NCBI GenBank assembly: GCA_026395055.1
Contig: JAPLZK010000002.1
Coordinates: 56,940 to 120,939 of the forward strand
Direction of reading: 5' to 3'
Source: Candidatus Uhrbacteria bacterium
Lineage (GTDB): Bacteria; Patescibacteriota; Patescibacteriia; UBA9934; GWF2-40-263
Length of the DNA stretch: 64,000 bases
Shown here in pieces: positions 4,945 through 63,774 of the stretch (its first letter is position 1; the number at the start of each line of letters is the position of its first letter). A model generated the notes under the pieces. The model was not told the DNA's origin. It did not search any database and saw only the letters and a list, made by a program, of their open reading frames with translations. The position numbers and the translations under genes were made by a program.

Positions 4945-5526
4945 ATGGATTTCAAGTATACGTTCGACGGTCAGTTGACGGGTTGGAGATGGAAACTCGT
5001 TCTCATCGCGATCTTCGCCATCTTTGTGTACGAGGCGACGGGACAATCTCCTGCGCTTGCGTTCTTGGCGGTCGTGATTCCGGGAGTCATCCTCTTCTCG
5101 CGCATCAGCTTCAAAGCGAAGAGTGATCTGGGTGTGATCGATATCCGTCCGGACACGCCGACGAAATTTCGTTTGCATCTTCCGGAGGAATTGAGCGTAT
5201 CGATTCGGGCATCTGCATTCGTGGAGCCAGATCCGCGTCAAGATCGTATCGACGAACTCGAATCCGAATTGGAGGACGCGGACAGCGAACTCGAAGATGC
5301 GGATTCGGAATGGGAGGATGCAAAAAGCGAACTCGAAGATGCAGAATCGGAAGTGCGAGATGCACAAGATGAACTGCGTCGGGTCGAGGAAGAGCGCGGT
5401 TCACATTTGGTAAATGTTTCCGAATACGCATCGAAGCGTGCGGAAGCGCAGGCAAAGAAAGACAGAATCGAAGCGGAGCTTGCGAAAGCACGCGAGCCGA
5501 ATGCCGAGAATACGACCATCACCTGA
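4945..5526 (+). CDS. Membrane-anchored acidic coiled-coil repeat protein (193 aa)
   Basis: RBS caggagaac. Two TM segments, then the ELESELEDADSELEDADSEWEDAKSELEDAESE repeats. Confidence 0.5.
   Translation: MDFKYTFDGQLTGWRWKLVLIAIFAIFVYEATGQSPALAFLAVVIPGVILFSRISFKAKSDLGVIDIRPDTPTKFRLHLPEELSVSIRASAFVEPDPRQDRIDELESELEDADSELEDADSEWEDAKSELEDAESEVRDAQDELRRVEEERGSHLVNVSEYASKRAEAQAKKDRIEAELAKAREPNAENTTIT
5254..5375 (+). repeat. In-frame tandem ~24-bp repeats (SELEDAxx units)
   Basis: agcgaactcgaagatgc(g/a)ga(t/a)tcggaa recurs. Encodes an acidic heptad-like repeat. Confidence 0.6.
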
Positions 5527-5595
5527 TCTTGTTGATCGGGAGTGATGTACAACCAGCGTTTCTCAACAATCCCAATCGGGATGGAGGCAGTGTTC

Positions 5596-6081
5596 ATGAT
5601 TCCATTGCTCGTTTATCTCGTCGTCACGTTCTTCTTGAACCACATCGTCGCGCAAGTGAATCTGTCTCGCGTGGCGGAGCATCCGGTTCGGAAATCAGGT
5701 TTCTTGCTCGATGTTGCGACGTTCTGTGCGGTTCTTCTGCGCGTGCCGTTCTACCTGTTCGGCATCGTGGTCTACAGCCTGTGCTGTATCGGCACAATCA
5801 TCGCGGCAGCCGCGGATTTCATTCCGGAATACACCATGACACTTTGGATCTACGTGCTTGCCGATAACCTCGGCTACGCGTCCTATGCGTTTCGTGCGCT
5901 TCTCGTGAAGGAATTCCATTTCCTGCAGAGCTTTGCAGCAAGTTCGTGGGCCATCACCTACTACGATTTTCATCTCACCTACGATACACGAGTGTTCTCG
6001 TTTCTCGTGTCGCCGCAAAAGGGATATCGTTCGCACAGTATTGCGCCCGAGCTTGTTGCTCGGCGCAAAATCAACACCTAG
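5596..6081 (+). CDS. Multi-pass membrane protein (161 aa)
   Basis: ggagg lies 8 nt before this ATG (MIPLLVYLVV...). ORF track start 5542 is possible. At least 4 hydrophobic segments. Confidence 0.45.
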   Translation: MIPLLVYLVVTFFLNHIVAQVNLSRVAEHPVRKSGFLLDVATFCAVLLRVPFYLFGIVVYSLCCIGTIIAAAADFIPEYTMTLWIYVLADNLGYASYAFRALLVKEFHFLQSFAASSWAITYYDFHLTYDTRVFSFLVSPQKGYRSHSIAPELVARRKINT

Positions 6082-6097
6082 ACATAGGGAGTCTGTC

Positions 6098-6229
6098 ATG
6101 CAAGTGATGTATTTTCTCGGTAACGCAATGAATGTGGTGATCGTCGGTGGTCTCTTGGTTTCCGCCGTCGTCATTCCACGTGATCTACTGCGTGGCGCGT
6201 TCAGTCGCAGCGCGCAGCGCAAAGCGTAA
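6098..6229 (+). CDS. Small TM peptide (43 aa)
   Basis: gggag RBS 6 nt upstream. Single TM segment NVVIVGGLLVSAVVI. Short, so tentative. Confidence 0.3.
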   Translation: MQVMYFLGNAMNVVIVGGLLVSAVVIPRDLLRGAFSRSAQRKA

Positions 6230-6250
6230 TTCGACAACGTTCTTTCTCTT

Positions 6251-6316
6251 GGCGAGAATCTTCTCGCCTCTTTTCCAGAGACTCACATCGATGGATGATG
6301 TGGTGATCTGCGAAAG
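6251..6316 (+). promoter_or_regulatory. Island junction unit (IJU)
   Basis: GGCGAGAATCTTCTCGCC, TCTTTTCCAGAGA, CACATC/GATGTG stem, TCTGCGAAAG, then ATAAGGAGG. Confidence 0.75.
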
Positions 6317-6330
6317 ATAAGGAGGTTCCG

Positions 6331-6954
6331 ATGCGGGATTTGGAAGCGATGTATCTTGAACACTTGGCGTTCGTGCGTGCGAATCTTGCGCTGCTCGGCG
6401 TTGAGGATCCGGAAGTGATGATTGCGTTTCGTGTAACGGATCAACGGCATAAACAACCGGACCGAATGATTACGTTCGATCTTTCTCTCTCAGAAGCACT
6501 ACATCACGAAGTGTGTTGTGCATGGCGATCATTTTTCGCCCCGCGATGGCCGGAGGAAACGACTTACAAGCCTGAAGTGCAGATGAATGGGGAATTGTTC
6601 GGGTATCTTGATTCGTCAGGATTCCGTTACAAAGATCCGCCTTCGCTCAGGCTTGCCCTTGCGTGGATGATTGTTGCCAGGTGGGAAAATCCACCGTTTC
6701 TGTTTGATCTTGATAAGGCTGTGAGTGTTCTTGCTGCCGTAGTTGCCGAAGGTGTGACCGAAGAGATCTTTGTGATGAAGTGGCTTCCAGCCCTGAAACA
6801 CGTTTTCGCGTTGCAACCCGGGATGACTGTTCGGGATGGTTATCGATCGTCCGAGGTGTATCTCTGGCGTGTAGCAACAAAAGATGTGTACGGCGAATCA
6901 CACCCTGGGTATCCAGGACGTGTGGAGCCGTGTTATCTGTTGCGTGTTCTTTGA
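6331..6954 (+). CDS. Hypothetical cytoplasmic protein (207 aa)
   Basis: Strong RBS. No signal peptide. No family recognised. Confidence 0.5.
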   Translation: MRDLEAMYLEHLAFVRANLALLGVEDPEVMIAFRVTDQRHKQPDRMITFDLSLSEALHHEVCCAWRSFFAPRWPEETTYKPEVQMNGELFGYLDSSGFRYKDPPSLRLALAWMIVARWENPPFLFDLDKAVSVLAAVVAEGVTEEIFVMKWLPALKHVFALQPGMTVRDGYRSSEVYLWRVATKDVYGESHPGYPGRVEPCYLLRVL

Positions 6955-6961
6955 AGCGTTT

Positions 6962-7020
6962 GGCGAGAATCTTCTCGCCTCTTTTCCAGAGACAACAAAC
7001 AGGTTGTGGTCTCTCAGAAG
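6962..7020 (+). promoter_or_regulatory. Island junction unit (IJU)
   Basis: GGCGAGAATCTTCTCGCC, TCTTTTCCAGAGA, GAGACAAC/GTTGTGGTCTC stem, CTCAGAAG. Confidence 0.7.
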
Positions 7021-7073
7021 GTTACAGACAGCATCAGTTGCATGCGACCATCCGTCGTTTGCTTGGAGGAAGT

Positions 7074-7367
7074 ATGGCGTTACCGATCATTGGGTATCTC
7101 GCGCGTTCCGATTGGGAAGATCCCGAGGACAGCGTCGTTGTCGCGATCGAAGATTGCGCGGAACCACAAGTGTTCCGTGTGCTTGCCGCAGAATGGTGTG
7201 CGAAAGAAAACACTGTTCACGTTGTGACCAGGTGGATGCGCGGAAAAGCGCCGATCAAAGTTCGCCTTGGCGAATCCGCCGTTGACTCGATGGCGGAATG
7301 TAGTCTCAAGTTCTGTGCGACGGAAGCTCTGGCCATCGAATGGCTGGGGACACAGTCGCAGTCGTAG
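7074..7367 (+). CDS. Hypothetical protein (97 aa)
   Basis: tggagga RBS 4 nt before the ATG (MALPIIGY...). The longer ORF 6780-7367 overlaps the previous gene and the IJU. Confidence 0.45.
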   Translation: MALPIIGYLARSDWEDPEDSVVVAIEDCAEPQVFRVLAAEWCAKENTVHVVTRWMRGKAPIKVRLGESAVDSMAECSLKFCATEALAIEWLGTQSQS

Positions 7368-7388
7368 GTTGTTTATCGTTCCTTTCTT

Positions 7389-7455
7389 GGCGAGAATCTT
7401 CTCGCCCCTTTTTCAGAGATCAAGAGTGAATGGCATTTGTGGTTTCTGTCAGAAG
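7389..7455 (+). promoter_or_regulatory. Island junction unit (IJU), weaker stem
   Basis: GGCGAGAATCTTCTCGCC, CCTTTTTCAGAGA ... TTTCTGTCAGAAG. Confidence 0.6.
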
Positions 7456-7484
7456 TGTTTCGTTGTTTTGTACAGGAGGGAAAG

Positions 7485-7649
7485 ATGGCACTGTTGGCTT
7501 TCATTGCAGGATGTTTCGCGGGTTCGATCATGTTTGTCGTCGCATGCGGTCTCCTTGGATACCGGATGATGCGCTCGGTCATGAAGGGGCAGAAGCCTCG
7601 TCTCGATCGTCCCGACGTGAAATATACGTTTCCGAACAAAAAGGAATAA
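7485..7649 (+). CDS. Small TM protein (54 aa)
   Basis: AGGAGGG RBS. TM segment MALLAFIAGCFAGSIMFVVACGLLG. Confidence 0.4.
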   Translation: MALLAFIAGCFAGSIMFVVACGLLGYRMMRSVMKGQKPRLDRPDVKYTFPNKKE

Positions 7650-7651
7650 TC

Positions 7652-8020
7652 ATGTACGCACGAAATCAAAACGTGGCGGCATGGGTCGCTATCGTAAACG
7701 CAAACGGGTATCAAGAAGTTTGTCCCGTTTCGAAAACGCAAAATGTGTACGCGCAATTCTCTCCGGTGATCCTTCGCTGGAGTCGGGAAGGGGAAATCAT
7801 TCTCGAATTCGTGAACAAGCCGCGAGCGCGACCGTTCGACCCTGACGATGATCGCAAGAATGAAATCGTTCGCGTAAACATCGGCAACGGCGTGATCACG
7901 AAGCGTGACTCGGATTGGAATCCGATTCTGCGGTGTGTTCCATGCGCATCGCATGCGGAAGCAATCATCGAGGCCAAGCGATTGATGGAAGTCATGATGG
8001 ACTATCAGGCGGCGGCGTAA
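7652..8020 (+). CDS. Hypothetical protein (122 aa)
   Basis: Starts 2 nt after the previous stop. Followed by a strong terminator. Confidence 0.5.
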   Translation: MYARNQNVAAWVAIVNANGYQEVCPVSKTQNVYAQFSPVILRWSREGEIILEFVNKPRARPFDPDDDRKNEIVRVNIGNGVITKRDSDWNPILRCVPCASHAEAIIEAKRLMEVMMDYQAAA

Positions 8021-8031
8021 GGTTTTTTCTT

Positions 8032-8063
8032 GACCAGACTCGAATGAGTTTGGTCTTTTTTTT
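8032..8063 (+). terminator. Intrinsic terminator ending the small-ORF array
   Basis: gaccagact-cgaatg-agtttggtc hairpin followed by T8. Confidence 0.8.
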
Positions 8064-8071
8064 GATGATGG

Positions 8072-8115
8072 GCTCGAAACCTCCCCCAACCCCTCCTTTG
8101 CAGGAGGGGCTTTGG
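8072..8115. repeat. 44-bp inverted repeat, left arm
   Basis: gctcgaaacctcccccaacccctcctttgcaggaggggctttgg. A perfect reverse complement lies at 8536-8579. Contains the internal hairpin cccctcc/ggagggg. Confidence 0.95.
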
Positions 8116-8146
8116 GCGTAGATAAAAACACTCCGCGTGGGAGTGT

Positions 8147-8530
8147 TTAAATGTATTGGGTTGGTCGTGCTGGTTGTATTGCGAGAATTTGTTTGATTCT
8201 GCTAATGACAGAGTTTGTGTTGTTTATTACTTCGTCGTTTGTAAATCGAATCACTTTGATTTCGTATCCTTCAATTATTCGTGACCGTTCCTCGTCATGT
8301 GTTTTTCCTTCACTGGTAAAATGCTGCGAACCATCAAGTTCGATTGCCAATCGTTTTTCGGAGCAATAGAAATCTACAACGAAAGAATCAATACCATGTT
8401 GTCGACGAAACTTAAAGCCTAACTTCTTGTTTTTAAGATGCTCCCATAAATAATTCTCCGCACGCGTCGCTTCGTTACGAAGCACGCGCCTCACATCCTT
8501 TTGATAGAACCGATTAAAAAGTTCATGCAT
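8147..8530 (-). CDS. DUF559 (Vsr-like) endonuclease-domain protein (127 aa)
   Basis: Motifs LRNEATRAENYLWEHLK, FRRQH, VDFYC, AIELDGSQH, IRFTNDEV. Start set at MHELF, because the longer ORF runs into the repeat and smc. Confidence 0.75.
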   Translation of the reverse strand: MHELFNRFYQKDVRRVLRNEATRAENYLWEHLKNKKLGFKFRRQHGIDSFVVDFYCSEKRLAIELDGSQHFTSEGKTHDEERSRIIEGYEIKVIRFTNDEVINNTNSVISRIKQILAIQPARPTQYI

Positions 8531-33203: not shown

Positions 33204-33329
33204 ACAAAACTTTCAAATTTGGATGCAATGCGCCGGGCTGGAGGGAAAAAATGTTTGAGTCGTAGATCGCCTACGGCGAAAACATTTTTTCCCGAAGCCC
33301 AAGCAGGGCGCCAAATTTGGAAGTTTTGT
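33204..33329 (-). repeat. tRNA-abutting long hairpin element, copy 1
   Basis: 19-nt arms acaaaactttcaaatttgg / ccaaatttggaagttttgt (1 mismatch) around a GC-rich core with an inner hairpin gggaaaaaatgttt/aaacattttttccc. Related to 63469-63595. Confidence 0.8.
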
Positions 33330-33403
33330 GGTGACCCCAAGGGGAATTGAACCCCTGTTACCAGGATGAAAACCTGATGTCCTAACCATTAGACGATGGG
33401 GCC
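33329..33403 (-). tRNA. tRNA-Glu (UUC), CCA encoded
   Basis: Cloverleaf folded by hand: acceptor GGCCCCA/TGGGGTC, anticodon loop TTTTCAT, T-loop GGGGTTCAATTCCCC. Confidence 0.9.
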
Positions 33404-55425: not shown

Positions 55426-57924
55426 ATGGCAGAAAAAAAACAACTTCCTGAAGAAGAGGTGCAAGACATCACCGCAAGTGGAATCGGTCGCATTGAGCGC
55501 CGAAACATTGCGGATGAAATGCAAACCGCGTACTTAGATTACGCTATGTCTGTGATTGTCGGACGTGCTCTTCCAGATATTCGTGACGGGTTAAAGCCTG
55601 TTCACCGCCGTATTTTATATTCCATGTGGCAAACAGGGTTGCGCTCAAGTGCAAAATTTAAAAAGTGTGCCTCTGTCGTTGGAGATGTGCTTGGAAAGTA
55701 TCACCCACACGGAGATTCTGCTGTGTATGATTCTCTTGTGCGTATGGCGCAAGATTTTTCCATGCGTTATCCACTCATCCGCGGACAAGGAAACTTCGGT
55801 TCGCTCGATGGAGACCCAGCAGCTGCGTACCGATACACAGAAGCAAAACTCGAAACCATCTCAGAAGAACTTTTGGTTGATATTGAAAAAGAAACCGTCG
55901 ACTTCATTCCAAACTTTGACGGAACACATAAAGAACCAAAAGTATTACCTGCAAAACTTCCAAACCTTCTTATCAATGGAACGGTTGGAATTGCCGTTGG
56001 AATGGCGTCCAACATTCCACCACACAACCTCGGTGAGGTTTGTGATGCTGTGCTCGCTTTGATTAAAGATAAGGACACTTCGATTGAAGATCTGTCCGAA
56101 ATCGTAAAGGGGCCAGATTTTCCAACCGGTGGAATCGCCTACAGTAATGCTGATATTAAAACAGCTCTCGCGACTGGTCGTGGGGGAGTGGTTGTGCGTG
56201 GAAAGACAGATATTGTGGAAGACAAAAAAGGAAACTTCGCCATTATCATCACGGAAATTCCATATCAGGTAAACAAAGCAAACTTGCTTATTCGCATTGC
56301 GCAAAATGTGCGCGATAAAAAGATTGAGGGGATTAAAGATCTTCGTGATGAATCCACTTCAGAGGGTGTACGTGTTGTTGTTGAGCTGAAGAAGGATGCA
56401 TATCCAAAAAAAGTTTTGAATCGCTTGTATCAAACAACGCAGCTTCAAGAATCCACGCACTACAATATGCTCGCGCTTGTTGAAGGTGGAATTTTGCCAC
56501 GCGTACTCAACCTCAAGATGATTCTTGAAGAGTATTTGAAGCATCGCCAAGAAGTGGTAAAGCGTCGAACACAATTTGAGCTCACACGCGCGCTTGATCG
56601 CGCGCACATTCTCGAAGGGTTACGCATCGCGCTCGCGCAGATCGATAAGATCATTGCCTGCATCAAAAAGTCCAAAGATAAAGACGAAGCACGTGTTAAC
56701 TTGATCAAACAATTTAAATTGTCGGAAAGACAAGCTGTCGCAATTTTGGACATGCGTTTGCAACAGCTCGCAAACCTTGAAACATTGCGCATCGAACAAG
56801 AGTACGCAGAAAAGATGGCGCTCATCAAAGAGCTTGAGTCTATTCTCGCAAGCGCAAAAAAGATGATGATGGTGATTGCAGAAGAAGTAGAAAGCTTGAA
56901 ACTCAAGTACGCTTCTCCTCGCCGCACACAAATCATCAAATCGGGAATTAAAGAATTCTCCATTGAAGACGTTGTGCCTGACACAGAGACCGTTGTCATG
57001 ATCACAAAAGCTGGATACATCAAACGTATTGATCCTGATACGTTCCGCACGCAAAAACGTGGCGGAAAAGGTGTTGTCGGTATGGCATCCAAGGAAGAAG
57101 ACGAGGTTGAGCAAGTCTTCTCGACCACGACGCACAAAGATCTTTTGTTCTTCACCACACGCGGTCGCGTGTTCCAATTGAAGGCTTACGATGTCCCCGA
57201 AGCTTCTCGCATTGCGAAAGGCCAAGCGCTCGTGAACTTCCTTCAGCTCGCGCCAGGTGAGTCTGTATCCGCGTCGTTGTCTATGGATGAACTCGCGGAT
57301 TCAAAGTTCTTGCTCATGGTGACAAACAAGGGAACCATCAAGAAAACAGACTTGTCCGAGTACGACTCGGTTCGCAAATCTGGACTCATCGCAATTAAGC
57401 TGAAAGACGGCGATAACTTGCAATGGGTTCGTCCAACATCTGGAAAAGATCAGATCATGCTTGTGACATCTGGCGGACAAGCGGTCCGATTCGAAGAAAA
57501 GGGCGTGCGCCCAATGGGTCGCGTCGCATCTGGAGTTCGAGGAATCAAGCTGAAAGGTGATGATTCTGTGGTCGGAATGGGAATCATTCCAGGCTCATCC
57601 TCGAAAAAGCCGGGTGAGAAGGAAATTCTGGTTGTGATGGAAAACGGATACGGCAAACGCTCGGATCTTATCGAATACAAGGTTCAAGGACGTGGTGGAT
57701 CCGGAATTAAAACCGCAAATATCAGCAAAAAGACAGGAAAAATCGTCGCGGCCCACATTGTAGACACCAAAGACGAGCGCGATATGTTCATTATTTCTGG
57801 AGCGGGTCAAGTTATTCGGTCTTCTCTCAGTTCCGTGTCCGTTCTTGGTCGCGCAACCCAGGGAGTTCGCATCATGCGCTTCAAAAAGCCTGATGACACG
57901 GTTGCAAGTGCAGCCCTCATTTAG
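55426..57924 (+). CDS. gyrA: DNA gyrase subunit A
   Basis: [37 protein letters not shown] (QRDR), AAAYRYTEA (catalytic Tyr) and C-terminal beta-pinwheel repeats. Confidence 0.97.
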
Positions 57925-57937
57925 ACAAAAAGACTGT

Positions 57938-57963
57938 GGTTTTTGCCACAGTCTTTTGATTTC
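57938..57963 (+). repeat. 26-bp direct repeat DR1 (includes half of the gyrA terminator)
   Basis: GGTTTTTGCCACAGTCTTTTGATTTC, identical to 60613-60638. Confidence 0.95.
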
Positions 57964-57975
57964 CCCAATGAATCA

Positions 57976-58004
57976 TTGACATTTTGCGGATTTTATGTTA
58001 TTAT
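57976..58004 (+). promoter_or_regulatory. Sigma70-like promoter of the DGR target gene
   Basis: TTGACA, 17-nt spacer, TATTAT. The 17-bp block GAATCATTGACATTTTG recurs at 63813-63829. Confidence 0.6.
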
Positions 58005-58131
58005 GCCGCGTCATTTGAATCTCGCACAGGGCGATTTTTGGTGACGTGCAGTGTCTACATTTGTTCGCTCCGAGCCTCGCGACGGAATCTCCGTCACAAA
58101 AGCTTGATCGGAACAAAATGCGGAGGAAGTA

Positions 58132-58791
58132 ATGGCAAAGCAGTCCTGGAGAATTAAGCTCGAGCAATGGCTCGCAGCAAATGGTGACGACGGCATGTCC
58201 GGAGTTGTGGATCATCTTGCGATTTTGACTCGCACAACGAGTCTTGTGCGCAAGCCTGGATTCAAAAAAGCTCTGGAGAAATTTTTGGACGAATGGGCCG
58301 GTCTTCCCGAGCAGAAGGAAGATCCGATCCTGCGCCGCCTGTTCGAGGACGAAACAATCACCATCGCCCCGTGCGACGGTTCTCGTTACATCGGCAAGCA
58401 GGAAAAGACGTTCGTCGCCGGCATCGATGGTGATTTCGAGCGATGGAATTTGAACAATCGCGGCAAGTCGACCGATGCGGCGAACGTTTCCGTCTTTGAA
58501 ATGATCAAGGACGCGACGTTCGCACAGATGTTCGGCTCCCTCGGATCGGATCTCGACAAGCTGTGTCTCAGCCAGGATCAGATCATCAAGTTCTGTGAGA
58601 CCAATCGGGACAAACTTCGCAAAGACGGCTACGCCACATTCTTTCTCTTCAAGGAGAATGAAAATTTCTTCGTGGCGGGCGTGGACGTGAGCTCCGATGG
58701 CCTGAGCGTCCTCGTCGGCCCGTTCGAGCACGACGGTGTCTGGTATGCGGGCTGTGTGCATCGTGTCGTCATCCCGCAACTGACCGTTTGA
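58132..58791 (+). CDS. DGR variable target protein (219 aa)
   Basis: The C-terminal 41 codons are the VR. RBS ggagg. Followed by the hairpin+T6 terminator at 58825-58859. Confidence 0.8.
   Translation: MAKQSWRIKLEQWLAANGDDGMSGVVDHLAILTRTTSLVRKPGFKKALEKFLDEWAGLPEQKEDPILRRLFEDETITIAPCDGSRYIGKQEKTFVAGIDGDFERWNLNNRGKSTDAANVSVFEMIKDATFAQMFGSLGSDLDKLCLSQDQIIKFCETNRDKLRKDGYATFFLFKENENFFVAGVDVSSDGLSVLVGPFEHDGVWYAGCVHRVVIPQLTV
58666..58789 (+). repeat. DGR variable repeat (VR)
   Basis: 124-bp match to the TR. By manual alignment there are 16 mismatches, 15 at TR adenines. Confidence 0.9.
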
Positions 58792-59097
58792 TTCTTATCA
58801 TTCGGAAAACCCTTAGACCCTTTGTCCCTCTGACTCTTTGTGAGTTGGAGGGATTTTTTGTATAATCAATTTGCAGTCGTGCGATATTTCATGGTCAAGG
58901 CTGTGGGGTCACGATTGTTTGGAATGGTCATCCAGAATTTTGTCGGCTACGGCTTGCAAAAGTGCGGTGATGATTCTGACAAACAAAAACTTTTCAGTTG
59001 GTGCGATGTGCTTGCGGACTTCTTCGTCCCAAATAAAATTCAGCTAGATTTCTCGTGCACGATAAATCGGCAGTGATCTTGATGGCTCATCGTACAA

Positions 59098-59221
59098 TTC
59101 TTCGTGGCGAACGTGAACGTGAACTCGGATGGCCTGAACGTCAACGTCAACCCGTTCGAGAACGACAATGTCTGGAATGCGGACTGTGTGCATCGTGTCG
59201 TCATCCCGAAACTGACCGTTT
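59098..59221 (+). repeat. DGR template repeat (TR)
   Basis: Contains 7 AAC, 2 AAT, 1 GAC and 1 AAA codon-equivalents whose adenines are substituted in the VR. Followed by the hairpin ctcctcc-gtttgaac-gggaggag. Confidence 0.9.
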
Positions 59222-59569
59222 CTCCTCCGTTTGAACGGGAGGAGTTTTCTTTTCCACGTCTTTTTTCCATCCGCCAAGCATTCTTCCAATTTCATCTAAA
59301 TCAAGGGAAAGTGCCGTATATTTATCGTTCGGGAGACATTTGTTTTCCCACGCGATTTGTAAAAAGAATTTCACGCCATCCAGTTTTGAAATGCAGACGT
59401 TGAGCCGATTCATCTTTTGTTCGCCGGAAAGATATTGCGAAACAAAGATTTGTTCGAGCATTTCCAGAAAGTATCCTTCAATTTTTCCTCCGAGATTATG
59501 GCGCGATGTTTTTGGAAAATCTGCAAGTAGTTTAAACCAAACAGCATAAGCGCTCCTCGTCTTTGTCAT
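59201..59569 (-). CDS. avd: Avd-like accessory variability determinant (four-helix bundle, 122 aa)
   Basis: AYAVWFKLLADFPKTSRHNLGGKIE ... LDEIGRMLGGWKK resembles bAvd/S23-IVS-type four-helix-bundle proteins. Encoded opposite to the TR and RT, and its 3' end overlaps the TR by 21 nt. Confidence 0.75.
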   Translation of the reverse strand: MTKTRSAYAVWFKLLADFPKTSRHNLGGKIEGYFLEMLEQIFVSQYLSGEQKMNRLNVCISKLDGVKFFLQIAWENKCLPNDKYTALSLDLDEIGRMLGGWKKDVEKKTPPVQTEEKRSVSG

Positions 59570-59583
59570 AACCGAAGGAGTTC

Positions 59584-59593
59584 GGGGGGGGGG
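59584..59593. repeat. G10 homopolymer tract
   Basis: ttcGGGGGGGGGGatcc, in the 54-bp gap between the divergent avd and RT starts. Confidence 0.95.
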
Positions 59594-59623
59594 ATCCAAT
59601 CATAGACATTCAATGGTGAAAAT

Positions 59624-60634
59624 ATGAAAAAATTTAAACGCGCTTATCAAGATATCATAACGGTCGATAATTTACTTCACGCATGGGAACAATTTTTACC
59701 GGGCAAGAAGAAGCGGACGGATGTTATTGAATTTCAAAATCGTCTCATGAACAATTTGTTTGATCTGCATCGAGCGCTCGTCGAGAAGACGTTTATACAC
59801 GGAGCCTATCATGCGTTTAATATCTCGGATCCAAAGCCAAGAAATATTCACAAGGCAACTGTTCGTGATCGATTGCTTCATCACCTCATTCATTCAGAGC
59901 TGTATGGATATTTCGATCAGAAGTTTATTTACGATTCTTATTCATGCCGAATCGAGAAGGGGACACATAGGGCCATGAATCGGTTTAGAGAGTTTGGCAG
60001 AATCGTTTCGAAAAATAATACGCGTACTTGTTGGGTTTTGAAATGCGATATTCGAAAATTTTTTGCAAATATTGATCACAACATCTTGAAAAGTATTTTG
60101 GGTAAGCATATCGACGATAAAGACGTGTTGAATTTGCTTAATCATCTTGTCGATAGTTTTTCGACTCCGGGGAAGAAAGATGTCGGACTTCCACTCGGCA
60201 ACCTAACCTCACAGCTTCTGGTGAACATTTACATGAATGAGTTTGATCAGTTTATGAAACGGACGATCAAGACCGAGTATTACATGCGATATGCAGATGA
60301 TTTTGTGATCTTGCACGAGAGTCGAGAGTATTTGAGCGAGATGATTTCAAATATCTCAGAATTCCTTGAGTCACATTTGAAATTATCTTTGCATCCGGAC
60401 AAATTGTTTCTAGAAACGCTCGTCTCCGGAGTTGATTTCCTTGGCTGGGTCCATTTTCCCCACCACCGAGTCTTACGAACAGCCACAAAGAGACGGATGT
60501 TAAGAAATGTTCGGAATTCAGAAGATTTGGCCACGTTTTACTCTTATGAGGGTATGCTAGCTCATGGGAATGGATTCAAATTGATTCGGAAGGCTGAATC
60601 ATCATTTTCAAAGGTTTTTGCCACAGTCTTTTGA
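59624..60634 (+). CDS. DGR-type reverse transcriptase (336 aa)
   Basis: SYSCRIEKGTHRA, LKCDIRKFFANIDH, GLPLGNLTSQLLVNIYMNEFD (DGR signature), YMRYADDFVIL, GVDFLGW. Confidence 0.9.
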   Translation: MKKFKRAYQDIITVDNLLHAWEQFLPGKKKRTDVIEFQNRLMNNLFDLHRALVEKTFIHGAYHAFNISDPKPRNIHKATVRDRLLHHLIHSELYGYFDQKFIYDSYSCRIEKGTHRAMNRFREFGRIVSKNNTRTCWVLKCDIRKFFANIDHNILKSILGKHIDDKDVLNLLNHLVDSFSTPGKKDVGLPLGNLTSQLLVNIYMNEFDQFMKRTIKTEYYMRYADDFVILHESREYLSEMISNISEFLESHLKLSLHPDKLFLETLVSGVDFLGWVHFPHHRVLRTATKRRMLRNVRNSEDLATFYSYEGMLAHGNGFKLIRKAESSFSKVFATVF

Positions 60635-60638
60635 TTTC
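60613..60638 (+). repeat. 26-bp direct repeat DR2
   Basis: Identical to 57938-57963. Supplies the last 7 codons and the stop of the RT ORF. Confidence 0.95.
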
Positions 60639-60667
60639 TTGACGCGACCCTCAAAAAATGGTATAAA
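60639..60667 (+). promoter_or_regulatory. Sigma70-like promoter of rpmF
   Basis: TTGACG, 17-nt spacer, TATAAA. Confidence 0.6.
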
Positions 60668-60773
60668 TGATGTAGAAAGTAGGAAGTAGAAAGCATAAAG
60701 GGATTCGATAATCTCTTTTTTCTTCCCACTTCCCACCTTTCTACTTTCTACTCACCCCTTTCTCCTTACTCCT

Positions 60774-61007
60774 ATGCCAGTACCAGCCCGTAAAAAGTCG
60801 AACGCCTCCGGCAAGCGCCGCCGTTCCCATGATCATCTTACAAAGAAGGTCATGCCAAACTGCCCACAGTGTTCTGCTCCTGTAAAACCACATAACGCTT
60901 GCCTTTCATGCGGTTTTTATGGTGGAAAACAAGTTATTTCTGTTGGAACGTCCACAGTAAAAATTGTAAAATCTGCAGCCAAGAAGGCGCCAAAAAAGAA
61001 AGCTTAA
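60774..61007 (+). CDS. rpmF: 50S ribosomal protein L32 (extended C-terminus)
   Basis: MPVPARKKSNASGKRRRSH...CPQC...CLSCGFY. Confidence 0.9.
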   Translation: MPVPARKKSNASGKRRRSHDHLTKKVMPNCPQCSAPVKPHNACLSCGFYGGKQVISVGTSTVKIVKSAAKKAPKKKA

Positions 61008-61072
61008 TGCTTTCTTTTTGTTTTCTGAGTGCGGGGTGAGGGCACCTCGCCTATTATTTAAATGTTCTTTTT

Positions 61073-61573
61073 ATGTCAAACAGACATTTGTCCCGAACTA
61101 TCGCCATGCAATCCCTGTACCAGTGGGATTTTCTTGGCATGGAAGATGAAAAAATTGAAGATATCATCGCATTCAATCGACAAGAGTTTGCGCCAAAGTT
61201 CGATGATCAAAAATTCGTTGAGAATCTTGTGCATGGAGTTATGGAGAAACGTGATGTGATTGATGAATTCATCACACGCTTTGCTCCAGACTGGCCACTT
61301 GAGTCGCTTACGCTCATCGATCGCAATATTTTGCGTCTTGGAGTGTATGAATTAAAGTTTGCAGATGCGATTCCTGCAAAAGTTGCGATCAACGAAGCGA
61401 TCGAGCTTGCGAAAGGCTTTGGCGGACAATCAAGCGGTCGTTTCGTAAACGGAGTGCTTGGCGCTGTCTATAAAGATATGGTCGCAAAAGGGGAAGTAAA
61501 GAAGGTTGATCAGGAAGTGAAGGAAGAAAAGAAAGAAGAACCTAAAAAATTAGAGGAAGTAATTGCTGAATAA
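61073..61573 (+). CDS. nusB: Transcription antitermination factor NusB
   Basis: SRTIAMQSLYQWDF..., DRNILRLGVYEL, VAINEAIELAKGFG. Lys/Glu-rich tail. Confidence 0.9.
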   Translation: MSNRHLSRTIAMQSLYQWDFLGMEDEKIEDIIAFNRQEFAPKFDDQKFVENLVHGVMEKRDVIDEFITRFAPDWPLESLTLIDRNILRLGVYELKFADAIPAKVAINEAIELAKGFGGQSSGRFVNGVLGAVYKDMVAKGEVKKVDQEVKEEKKEEPKKLEEVIAE

Positions 61574-63393: not shown

Positions 63394-63468
63394 TGGTGCA
63401 CCGGGAGGGGATCGAACCCTCGACCAAGAGATTAAGAGTCTCCTGCTCTACCGCTGAGCTACCGATGC
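63394..63468 (-). tRNA. tRNA-Lys (CUU), CCA encoded
   Basis: Hand-folded: acceptor GCATCGG/CCGGTGC, D-arm GCTCAGCGGTAGAGC, anticodon loop CTCTTAA, T-arm GAGGGTTCGATCCCCTC. Confidence 0.9.
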
Positions 63469-63697: not shown

Positions 63698-63774
63698 GCG
63701 GGCATAGCTCAGCTGGATAGAGCACCAGTCTTCGGAACTGGGTGTCGGGGGTTCAAATCCCTCTGCCCGCACCA
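63698..63774 (+). tRNA. tRNA-Arg (UCG), CCA encoded
   Basis: Acceptor GCGGGCA/TGCCCGC, D-arm GCTCAGCTGGATAGAGC, anticodon loop CTTCGGA, T-loop GGTTCAAATCC. Confidence 0.9.

Follow-up and report, generated by a model that had tools for sequence, protein, structure and literature searches.

Diversity-generating retroelements (DGRs) of the candidate phyla radiation (CPR) form a cellular clade, and a global survey found DGR operational taxonomic units and clusters to be mostly vertically inherited (Roux et al. 2021, PMC8144416). In Bacteroides, the transfer of DGRs has been attributed to integrative and conjugative elements (ICEs) with att repeats at tRNA-Lys (bioRxiv 10.1101/2024.11.15.621889). 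We investigated a DGR of a Candidatus Uhrbacteria bacterium that lies between gyrA and rpmF on contig JAPLZK010000002.1 and is bounded by two identical copies of a 26-bp direct repeat. The whole stretch of DNA that was analyzed, hereafter the window, is 64,000 nucleotides long; positions refer to it unless a relative is named, and relatives are designated by L numbers. The repeat is probably the scar of one old, host-mediated insertion that was followed by local recombination and later homogenization. This reading rests on five observations: the site is empty in the ancestral state, several lineages have common breakpoints, the insertion is old, the spacer is hypervariable, and cassettes elsewhere lack repeats.

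The repeat-bounded DGR and its empty site

The 26-mer, GGTTTTTGCCACAGTCTTTTGATTTC, occurs in two exact copies on the plus strand, at 57938-57963 and 60613-60638, as the original prediction had claimed. No third copy was found within 3 mismatches in the 64 kb, and none of 100 dinucleotide-shuffled sequences matched. Copy 1 (57938-57963, +) overlaps the intrinsic terminator hairpin of gyrA (57928-57957, +), hereafter T, which starts 4 nt past the gyrA stop codon and consists of a 13-bp stem, a 4-nt loop and a U-rich 3' arm, with a folding energy of -19.6 kcal/mol (z = -6.4). Across 7 relatives, 93% of the alignment cells were paired and 3 pairs carried compensatory double changes; in L003 and L004 the geometry of T was unchanged and compensatory changes were present. 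The stable hairpin, the U-run, the position directly after the stop codon and the covariation identify T as a Rho-independent terminator. Copy 1 starts with the final 2-3 nt of the 5' arm, spans the loop and the entire 3' arm, and continues for 6 nt (GATTTC) beyond the hairpin. It had been described as the 3' half of the gyrA terminator plus 9 nt; the half-site was correctly recognized, and the extension is 6 nt.

Copy 2 (60613-60638, +) is a half-terminator that lacks the 5' arm. It formed no hairpin when folded (-5 kcal/mol, z = 0) and is not a terminator by itself, and a new terminator made of copy 2 and the upstream reverse transcriptase (RT) sequence was rejected, the fold being no better than those of shuffles. 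Copy 2 encodes V-F-A-T-V-F followed by TGA (60632-60634), that is, the last six codons and the stop codon of the DGR RT, and it abuts the -35 element of the rpmF promoter, TTGACG (60639-60644), which begins at the next base. The predicted placement of this copy at the RT stop, right before the rpmF promoter, is thus exact. In a metagenome scan, a 23-nt core of the repeat was found in only two contigs (181 kb and 209 kb), both from the sister species L035 and each holding two copies, and zero matches were obtained in the viral contigs scanned. Because the core is confined to these two contigs and is absent from the viral ones, the repeat is neither dispersed nor a common terminator sequence, and a doubt that the original prediction had itself raised is removed.

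The element between the repeats is a genuine DGR, with an insert size of 2.65 kb between the repeats. Inside the insert, 12 nt 3' of copy 1, lies the promoter of the target gene (57976-58004, +), with TTGACA, a 17-nt spacer, TATTAT and a TG before the -10 element (11 of 12 consensus matches), and this promoter is kept in L035 and in the tandem units of L088-L090, hereafter the N clade. The gene for the target (variable) protein (58132-58791, +) encodes 219 aa. No Pfam, NCBIfam or PDB sequence match was obtained for the protein and no signal peptide was evident by eye; L035 (76% aa identity), L001 (54%) and L088-L090 carry homologues of it at this locus. The variable repeat (VR; 58666-58789, +) at the 3' end of the target gene and the template repeat (TR; 59098-59221, +), identified by repeat comparison with VR, are 87% identical over 124 nt, and 15 of their 16 differences are at TR adenines. 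A hairpin with a T-run (58824-58854, +) lies 3' of VR and is kept after every target-type gene in L001 and L089; it would serve either as the terminator of the target gene or as a hairpin for DGR target recognition.

The accessory variability determinant gene, avd (59201-59599, -), was recognized by Pfam PF22296 bAvd at 8e-13, above the cutoff, and by NCBIfam DivGenRetAVD at 4e-17, below the curated equivalog cutoff. The DGR RT (59624-60634, +; 336 aa) matched Pfam RVT_1 at 3e-22, and its translation contains the motifs YADD and GNLTSQ (GxxxSQ type). It is identical to a GenBank protein of a Candidatus Uhrbacteria metagenome-assembled genome (MAG), and hundreds of RT homologues in CPR are 62-77% identical to it. 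Homology with relatives ends at about residue 326, and the C-terminal tails vary among them. No recombinase, transposase or integrase was found in the insert, in which three open reading frames (ORFs), the target gene, avd and RT, have homologues or match known families; other listed ORFs were not analyzed. The repeat search reported no terminal inverted repeats at the insert ends, and an Rfam search of 57800-61100 for group II intron RNA (E <= 1) gave only sub-threshold matches to small RNAs and microRNAs.

To identify related loci, species-representative genomes were scanned with the GyrA C-terminal domain, which yielded 80 loci. The order gyrA-rpmF-nusB-rnc was found at >40 loci and is widespread in Uhrbacteria. 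The gyrA-rpmF spacer ranges from 34 bp to 5.7 kb, and short spacers of 34-230 bp occur in many Uhrbacteria. In the gyrA tree, the outgroup nearest to the group of the window is L002, which was left out of the nusB-rnc tree because its contig is without rnc. L002 and many deeper Uhrbacteria carry no DGR and have one terminator beside the rpmF promoter; the layout in L002 is gyrA, TAG, CC, T, a 28-bp palindrome and the rpmF promoter. The junction of gyrA terminator and rpmF promoter is thus ancestrally continuous in L002 and the deeper relatives, indicating that the DGR is an insertion. Comparison of these sequences supports the view that the DGR was inserted into an ancestral terminator-promoter junction and that the repeats mark the ends of the insert. 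It had been predicted that excision of one repeat together with the insert would leave such a junction, and a search of the intergenic regions of related genomes for empty sites had been suggested; the DGR-free loci bear the prediction out. The empty site was seen at the interspecies level only, in L002. The palindrome of L002 (2146-2175 of that locus; CCGGCGAAGCCGGATCCGGCTTCGCCGG), which lies between the gyrA terminator and the rpmF promoter, is perfect and GC-rich and is apparently bordered by a duplication of TTGATTT.

Age of the insertion and contents of the spacer in relatives

The sister species L035 (RIFCSPLOWO2_01_FULL_47_17) carries an orthologous DGR. The window and L035 align as one colinear block that extends from upstream of gyrA through target, TR, avd and RT to 60501, with 82.5% nucleotide identity. 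The DGR of L035 is as diverged as its flanks, the two species being ~15-18% diverged at the nucleotide level, and its left breakpoint falls at the identical nucleotide. On the right side, the L035 sequence from the RT 3' end to the start of parD aligns with TCTTTTGATTTC-TTGACG...GTAGAAAGTAGGAAG of the window, which reaches into the rpmF leader. The score of this alignment was 32, against 16.3 +/- 2.3 for shuffles (shuffle maximum, 28), and the start context of the L035 parD, ACTCCTATG, is that of rpmF in the window.

Identical sequences aside, the nearest relative of the window's RT is encoded on L099 (83% aa identity). L099 aligns with 59603-60645 at 80.7% identity, through the end of RT, a decayed half-site of T (GGTTTCGCCAAGG-----TTGATTTC) and the -35 element, after which comes a parD gene. 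The half-site is decayed in L099, L035 and the N clade save for TTGATTTC beside the -35 element; a role of the 26-mer as a promoter upstream element conserved whole was accordingly rejected except for these last 8 nt. The junction of RT, half-site and promoter is shared by the window, L099 (decayed) and L035 (vestigial) and is therefore older than the divergence of at least three lineages. Independent assemblies of three L035-type contigs and of L099 show the architecture that is seen in the window. By these alignments, the insertion is old and has been vertically inherited by several related Uhrbacteria species. The five closest lineages (the window, L035, L001, the N clade and L094) are related in a star-like manner, with 82-86% pairwise identity.

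We found that the gyrA-rpmF spacer is a hypervariable islet, a hot spot with differing cargo per species. Its contents include DGRs (twice independently), parDE, a kinase gene, tandem or orphan target genes, and up to 5.7 kb of other genes. In L035, the DGR and a MazE/ParE-type module are followed by a second complete T, which results in a 41-bp repeat that includes the stop codon; in L094, parE is followed by T and the rpmF promoter. In L001, the terminator of gyrA is a different one, and the spacer contains a single T and one gene that resembles the target gene (54% aa identity). The N clade (L088, L089 and L090; about 5230-6840) has the L001-type target-like gene and one or two 956-bp tandem units, each composed of a promoter, a leader, a 219-aa DGR-type target gene and a hairpin, and the copy number of this unit varies between strains of one species. 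No TR, avd or RT was found between gyrA and rpmF in the N clade, whose target genes are orphan or trans-served variable genes with copy-number variation. An APH-type kinase gene occupies the spacer at six loci, and the spacer of L076 contains a different DGR, the RT of which is 53% identical. L021 contains an unrelated 1.18-kb insert with an exact 33-bp flanking duplication of its own post-gyrA sequence, and this 33-bp repeat is unrelated in sequence to the 26-mer of the window. Among the filled gyrA-rpmF spacers and the related cassettes, flanking repeats of >10 nt were found only in the window, L035 and L021.

We also noted several details of these inserts. The MazE-like/ParE-like pair between the DGR RT and rpmF (L035, 9740-10228; L099, 1102-1251; L094, 2-238) has as its promoter and leader a diverged duplicate of those of rpmF, and its stop codon sits in a duplicated gyrA-type stop-plus-terminator. 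The repeats of L021 are at 6999-7031 and 8182-8214, and the ORFs of 203 aa and 94 aa in its insert are without family matches. At several loci, the last ORF of the insert takes its stop codon from resident regulatory DNA: the TGA in the -35 element in L076 and L003, the gyrA-type TAG in L035, and the TGA in the tail of T in the window. The RT of L076 and the APH-type kinase ORF of L003 end at the TGA of the rpmF -35 element (TTGACC or TTGACG; L076, 9850-9860; L003, 7455-7462), and both inserts are packed onto the rpmF promoter with no spare DNA. Several MAG or metagenome contigs from sister species end at or near the gyrA end or in the islet (L005, end at 6851; L094, start; L091-L093), which would fit breakage of short-read assemblies here by VR/TR and the terminator repeats.

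On the left of the islet, gyrA (55426-57924, +) is an 832-aa ORF whose GyrA C-terminal domain has homologues with 97-99% aa identity in sister species. On the right, the rpmF promoter (60639-60667, +) was read from the sequence as TTGACG, 17 nt and TGgTATAAA, with the -10 element at 60662-60667; it was missed by the consensus scanner because the -10 element ends in A. The -35/-10 pair is kept in at least 6 related species, and the promoter is conserved in L001, L002, L035, L089 and L094. A long hairpin (60672-60763, +; -25.5 kcal/mol) is located in the rpmF 5' leader and may be an L32 leader or attenuator. Hairpins of differing sequence were found at the same position in L001, L088/L089, L002, L094 and L006 (-30 to -73 kcal/mol) and none in L035, and no Rfam family matches the hairpin of the window. 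The rpmF gene (L32; 60774-61007, +) is followed by nusB and rnc. Its start (60765-60776) is preceded by the pyrimidine-rich CCTATG instead of a purine-rich Shine-Dalgarno sequence, a start context common to many Uhrbacteria (L003, L008, L020, L021, L029 and L076), and gene callers lengthen L32 by 24 codons into the leader in two relatives. The window contains genes for tRNA-Glu(ttc) (33329-33403), tRNA-Lys(ctt) (63394-63468) and tRNA-Arg(tcg) (63698-63774), the latter two ~2.5 kb downstream of the islet.

Related cassettes and the history of the repeat

Cassettes of the same family, with an RT ~70% identical and the same gene order, were found elsewhere (L084, L085 trmD-rpoB; L086/L087 rsmA-pilC). 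Their occurrence between unrelated housekeeping genes in other Patescibacteria indicates that the unit has moved over evolutionary time. The cassettes of L076 and L084-L087 have no flanking repeat of >10 nt, and the left ends of the L035, L085, L086 and L089 cassettes share the promoter consensus only. Since there are no repeats at the other cassette sites and the unrelated insert of L021 is flanked by a duplication, the duplication reflects how DNA enters and leaves the spacer and is not a property of the DGR. Predicted viral contigs carry RT relatives at 57-62% identity. L101 (IMGVR_UViG_3300020195_001307; 5614-8342) encodes Avd and an RT 59% identical to that of the window and then a 455-aa large serine recombinase, which overlaps the RT stop with its start and has the domains Resolvase, Recombinase and Zn_ribbon_recom. 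Going by this gene order, L101 illustrates a plausible kind of vehicle for such cassettes, though not for the event in the window.

We propose the following history for the locus. In the ancestor of the window's genus-level group, T would have run almost directly into the rpmF -35 element. A compact cassette consisting of its own promoter, a target gene with VR, TR, avd and RT would have entered this junction via host recombination, possibly by illegitimate or microhomology-mediated joining or by single-crossover integration of a circle with a short junction copy, and would have duplicated at least the 3' half of T. From then on, copy 1 would have been part of the full terminator that gyrA kept, copy 2 would have preserved the native sequence upstream of rpmF, and the RT ORF, butted onto copy 2, would have come to use the first in-frame stop codon there. 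Vertical inheritance would have been followed by lineage-specific remodeling of the locus as a recombination-prone islet, in which a parDE module with another copy of T and promoter was presumably added in L035, L099 and L094, TR, avd and RT were lost in L001 and the N clade, and the target module was tandemly amplified in the N clade. Because the half-site is decayed in L099, L035 and the N clade, the 26/26 identity in the window is best explained by later homogenization, which we infer to be its most likely source. This could have taken either of two routes: copy 2 was converted by copy 1, or a crossover between the old half-T/promoter and an intact T/rpmF promoter removed a parDE segment. 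The second route would also account for the promoter of the window being of the rpmF-proximal type.

Several points weigh against this history. The 26/26 identity after such divergence would require an extra step of homogenization or constraint. The half-site vestige in L035 rests on a short alignment, and L099 is a single 1.25-kb Logan contig in which the RT ORF is broken. The original duplication was at least 26 bp, and the 41-bp repeat of L035 may be a separate, later duplication. In addition, the star-like species tree favors no particular order of the parDE gains and losses and of the events that produced orphan targets.

One alternative, which we consider unlikely, is that the repeats are attL and attR of a small integrative element at the gyrA terminator, with the DGR, with or without parDE, as its cargo and an integrase that acted in trans or was lost. 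The repeats of the window resemble those left by tyrosine-integrase islands, which are tens of bp long and directly repeated at the 3' ends of conserved genes. Addiction modules such as parDE are typical of mobile DNA, and parDE lies inside the repeats in L035 and after the same junction in L099; the related DGR on the viral L101 adjoins a large serine recombinase, and L021 provides a second repeat-flanked insert at the same position. However, no integrase was found between the repeats or elsewhere in the locus versions of the window, L001, L035, L088-L090 and L099, so that an att-type element here would have none in or beside it. The duplicated sequences of the window and L021 are unrelated and therefore do not reflect a common att site used by independent integrations. 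Serine recombinases leave only a 2-bp common core, which does not match repeats of this length, and family cassettes at four other sites are without repeats. The right breakpoint splits the hairpin midway and fuses the RT ORF, which looks like an arbitrary join or later trimming and not like a defined att boundary.

We also give little credence to the possibility that the perfect repeat is young, the 26 bp being the end-point of a deletion and not an insertion scar. By this account, the lineage of the window once had a longer right end like that of L035 or L099 and lost from it an RT tail, an old promoter and parDE, along with the 5' arm of a second full terminator. L035 and L094 indeed have a full second T with parE before it and the rpmF promoter beside it, and the promoter of the window is of the rpmF-proximal type (AAAAATGGTATAAA), unlike the parD-proximal type of L099 and L035. 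A young deletion would also account for the 26/26 identity and for a 35-nt identity with copy 2 of L035. However, the breakpoint from RT to GGTTT is the same in L099 and the window and therefore predates their split, and an independent deletion at the same nucleotide is unlikely. A crossover deletion inside the old half-site is, moreover, already contained in the old-insertion history as one of its routes of homogenization.

A more speculative idea, which we regard as quite improbable, is that an unrecognized process acting in trans inserts promoter-to-stop cassettes at the terminator/promoter boundary between gyrA and rpmF of Uhrbacteria, duplicating 26-41 bp, in an integron-like manner but without a recognizable integrase. 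Such a process would cover DGRs (twice), parDE, the kinase gene and unknown genes, and the duplicated terminators would be handles for excision, exchange and tandem amplification.

It is very improbable that the DGR is self-mobile, or was moved by a transposase in trans, and that the 26 bp are the target-site duplication (TSD) of a recent transposition or retrotransposition. Exact direct repeats bound a compact unit that ends at the RT stop, members of the cassette family occupy several unrelated loci in other Patescibacteria, and RT identities do not track host taxonomy (e.g., L076). Against this, the insertion and its breakpoints are common to lineages ~15-20% diverged, and four other insertion sites of the family show no duplication. 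The cassette promoter lies inside the insert, so a transcript from it cannot be a transposition intermediate; an RNA-mediated origin by retrotransposition was rejected on this ground and because no intron-like RNA was found. Of the hallmarks of a transposon with a TSD, namely a mobility enzyme, terminal inverted repeats or shared ends, and a characteristic duplication at every site, none was found. No transposase and no group II intron RNA were detected in the insert, and duplications of 26, 33 and 41 bp are unlike the product of a single transposase. Neither self-mobility of the DGR nor a recent event is supported. The original prediction had read the repeats as the signature of DGR insertion with target duplication or of site-specific or homologous capture. 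Insertion with duplication is supported by the empty relatives, site-specific capture is unlikely, and self-mobility is disfavored by the age of the event and the absence of a recombinase and of repeats elsewhere.

A chance match, an assembly artifact or membership in a dispersed terminator or repetitive extragenic palindromic-like family is scarcely credible: terminators can resemble one another, but the shuffles, the 64-kb search, the viral contigs and the sister-species contigs, which hold only the two expected copies each, all speak against it, and an artifact was rejected since the same architecture recurs in independent assemblies of related species (three L035-type contigs and L099).

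Comparison with known systems

We regard the feature as an ordinary insertion scar, though a nicely documented one, within an intergenic islet that is hypervariable. The natural history of a chromosomal CPR DGR is rarely resolved this well: the locus has an empty site and exact breakpoints, and the vertical descent of the DGR through a genus-level radiation and its decay into orphan or tandemly amplified target genes are visible. Perfect flanking repeats can mislead on age, and their identity here would reflect homogenization or constraint and not recency. For annotation, caution is needed with RT and other ORFs at such junctions, which borrow stop codons from host regulatory DNA, and MAG assemblies may break at repeats as long as these in combination with VR/TR. 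The locus does not alter the view that a DGR needs another vehicle or host recombination in order to move.

Bacterial group IIC introns home just downstream of intrinsic terminator hairpins, and in the window, too, an RT-encoding element lies a few nt past a terminator hairpin, on the transcribed strand. The element differs in that no Rfam intron RNA domains were found around it (E <= 1) and in that it has its own promoter, a gene on the opposite strand and a duplicated target; group II introns are not known to duplicate their target. The other cassettes of the family are not all beside terminators. TSDs of insertion sequences and transposons are typically ~2-15 bp long and, as in the window, are identical direct repeats of host sequence at the ends of an insert. 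The 26-bp repeat is longer, however, and is accompanied by no transposase or inverted repeats; it stems from a single old event, and copies of the family elsewhere are without duplication.

Islands of the att type, such as those at tRNA genes and the Bacteroides ICEs at tRNA-Lys, have several features in common with the insert: they lie next to the 3' end of a conserved gene, the duplicated flanking sequence is tens of bp long, differing cargo reuses one hot spot, and some lineages have a toxin-antitoxin module. The insert differs from them in having no integrase or conjugation genes and a cargo of only 2.65 kb, in a duplicated sequence that varies by lineage, and in a right breakpoint that cuts a hairpin and fuses an ORF.

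The DGR itself is essentially no different from the cellular DGRs of CPR/Patescibacteria (clade 2, PMC8144416). Like these, it has a small RT with YADD and GxxxSQ, Avd, adenine-specific differences between VR and TR, and a TR near a C-terminal VR, and it is chromosomal and largely vertically inherited within its genus. What the locus adds to the known CPR DGRs is a reconstructed insertion site with its empty state, common breakpoints, and decay into orphan target genes.

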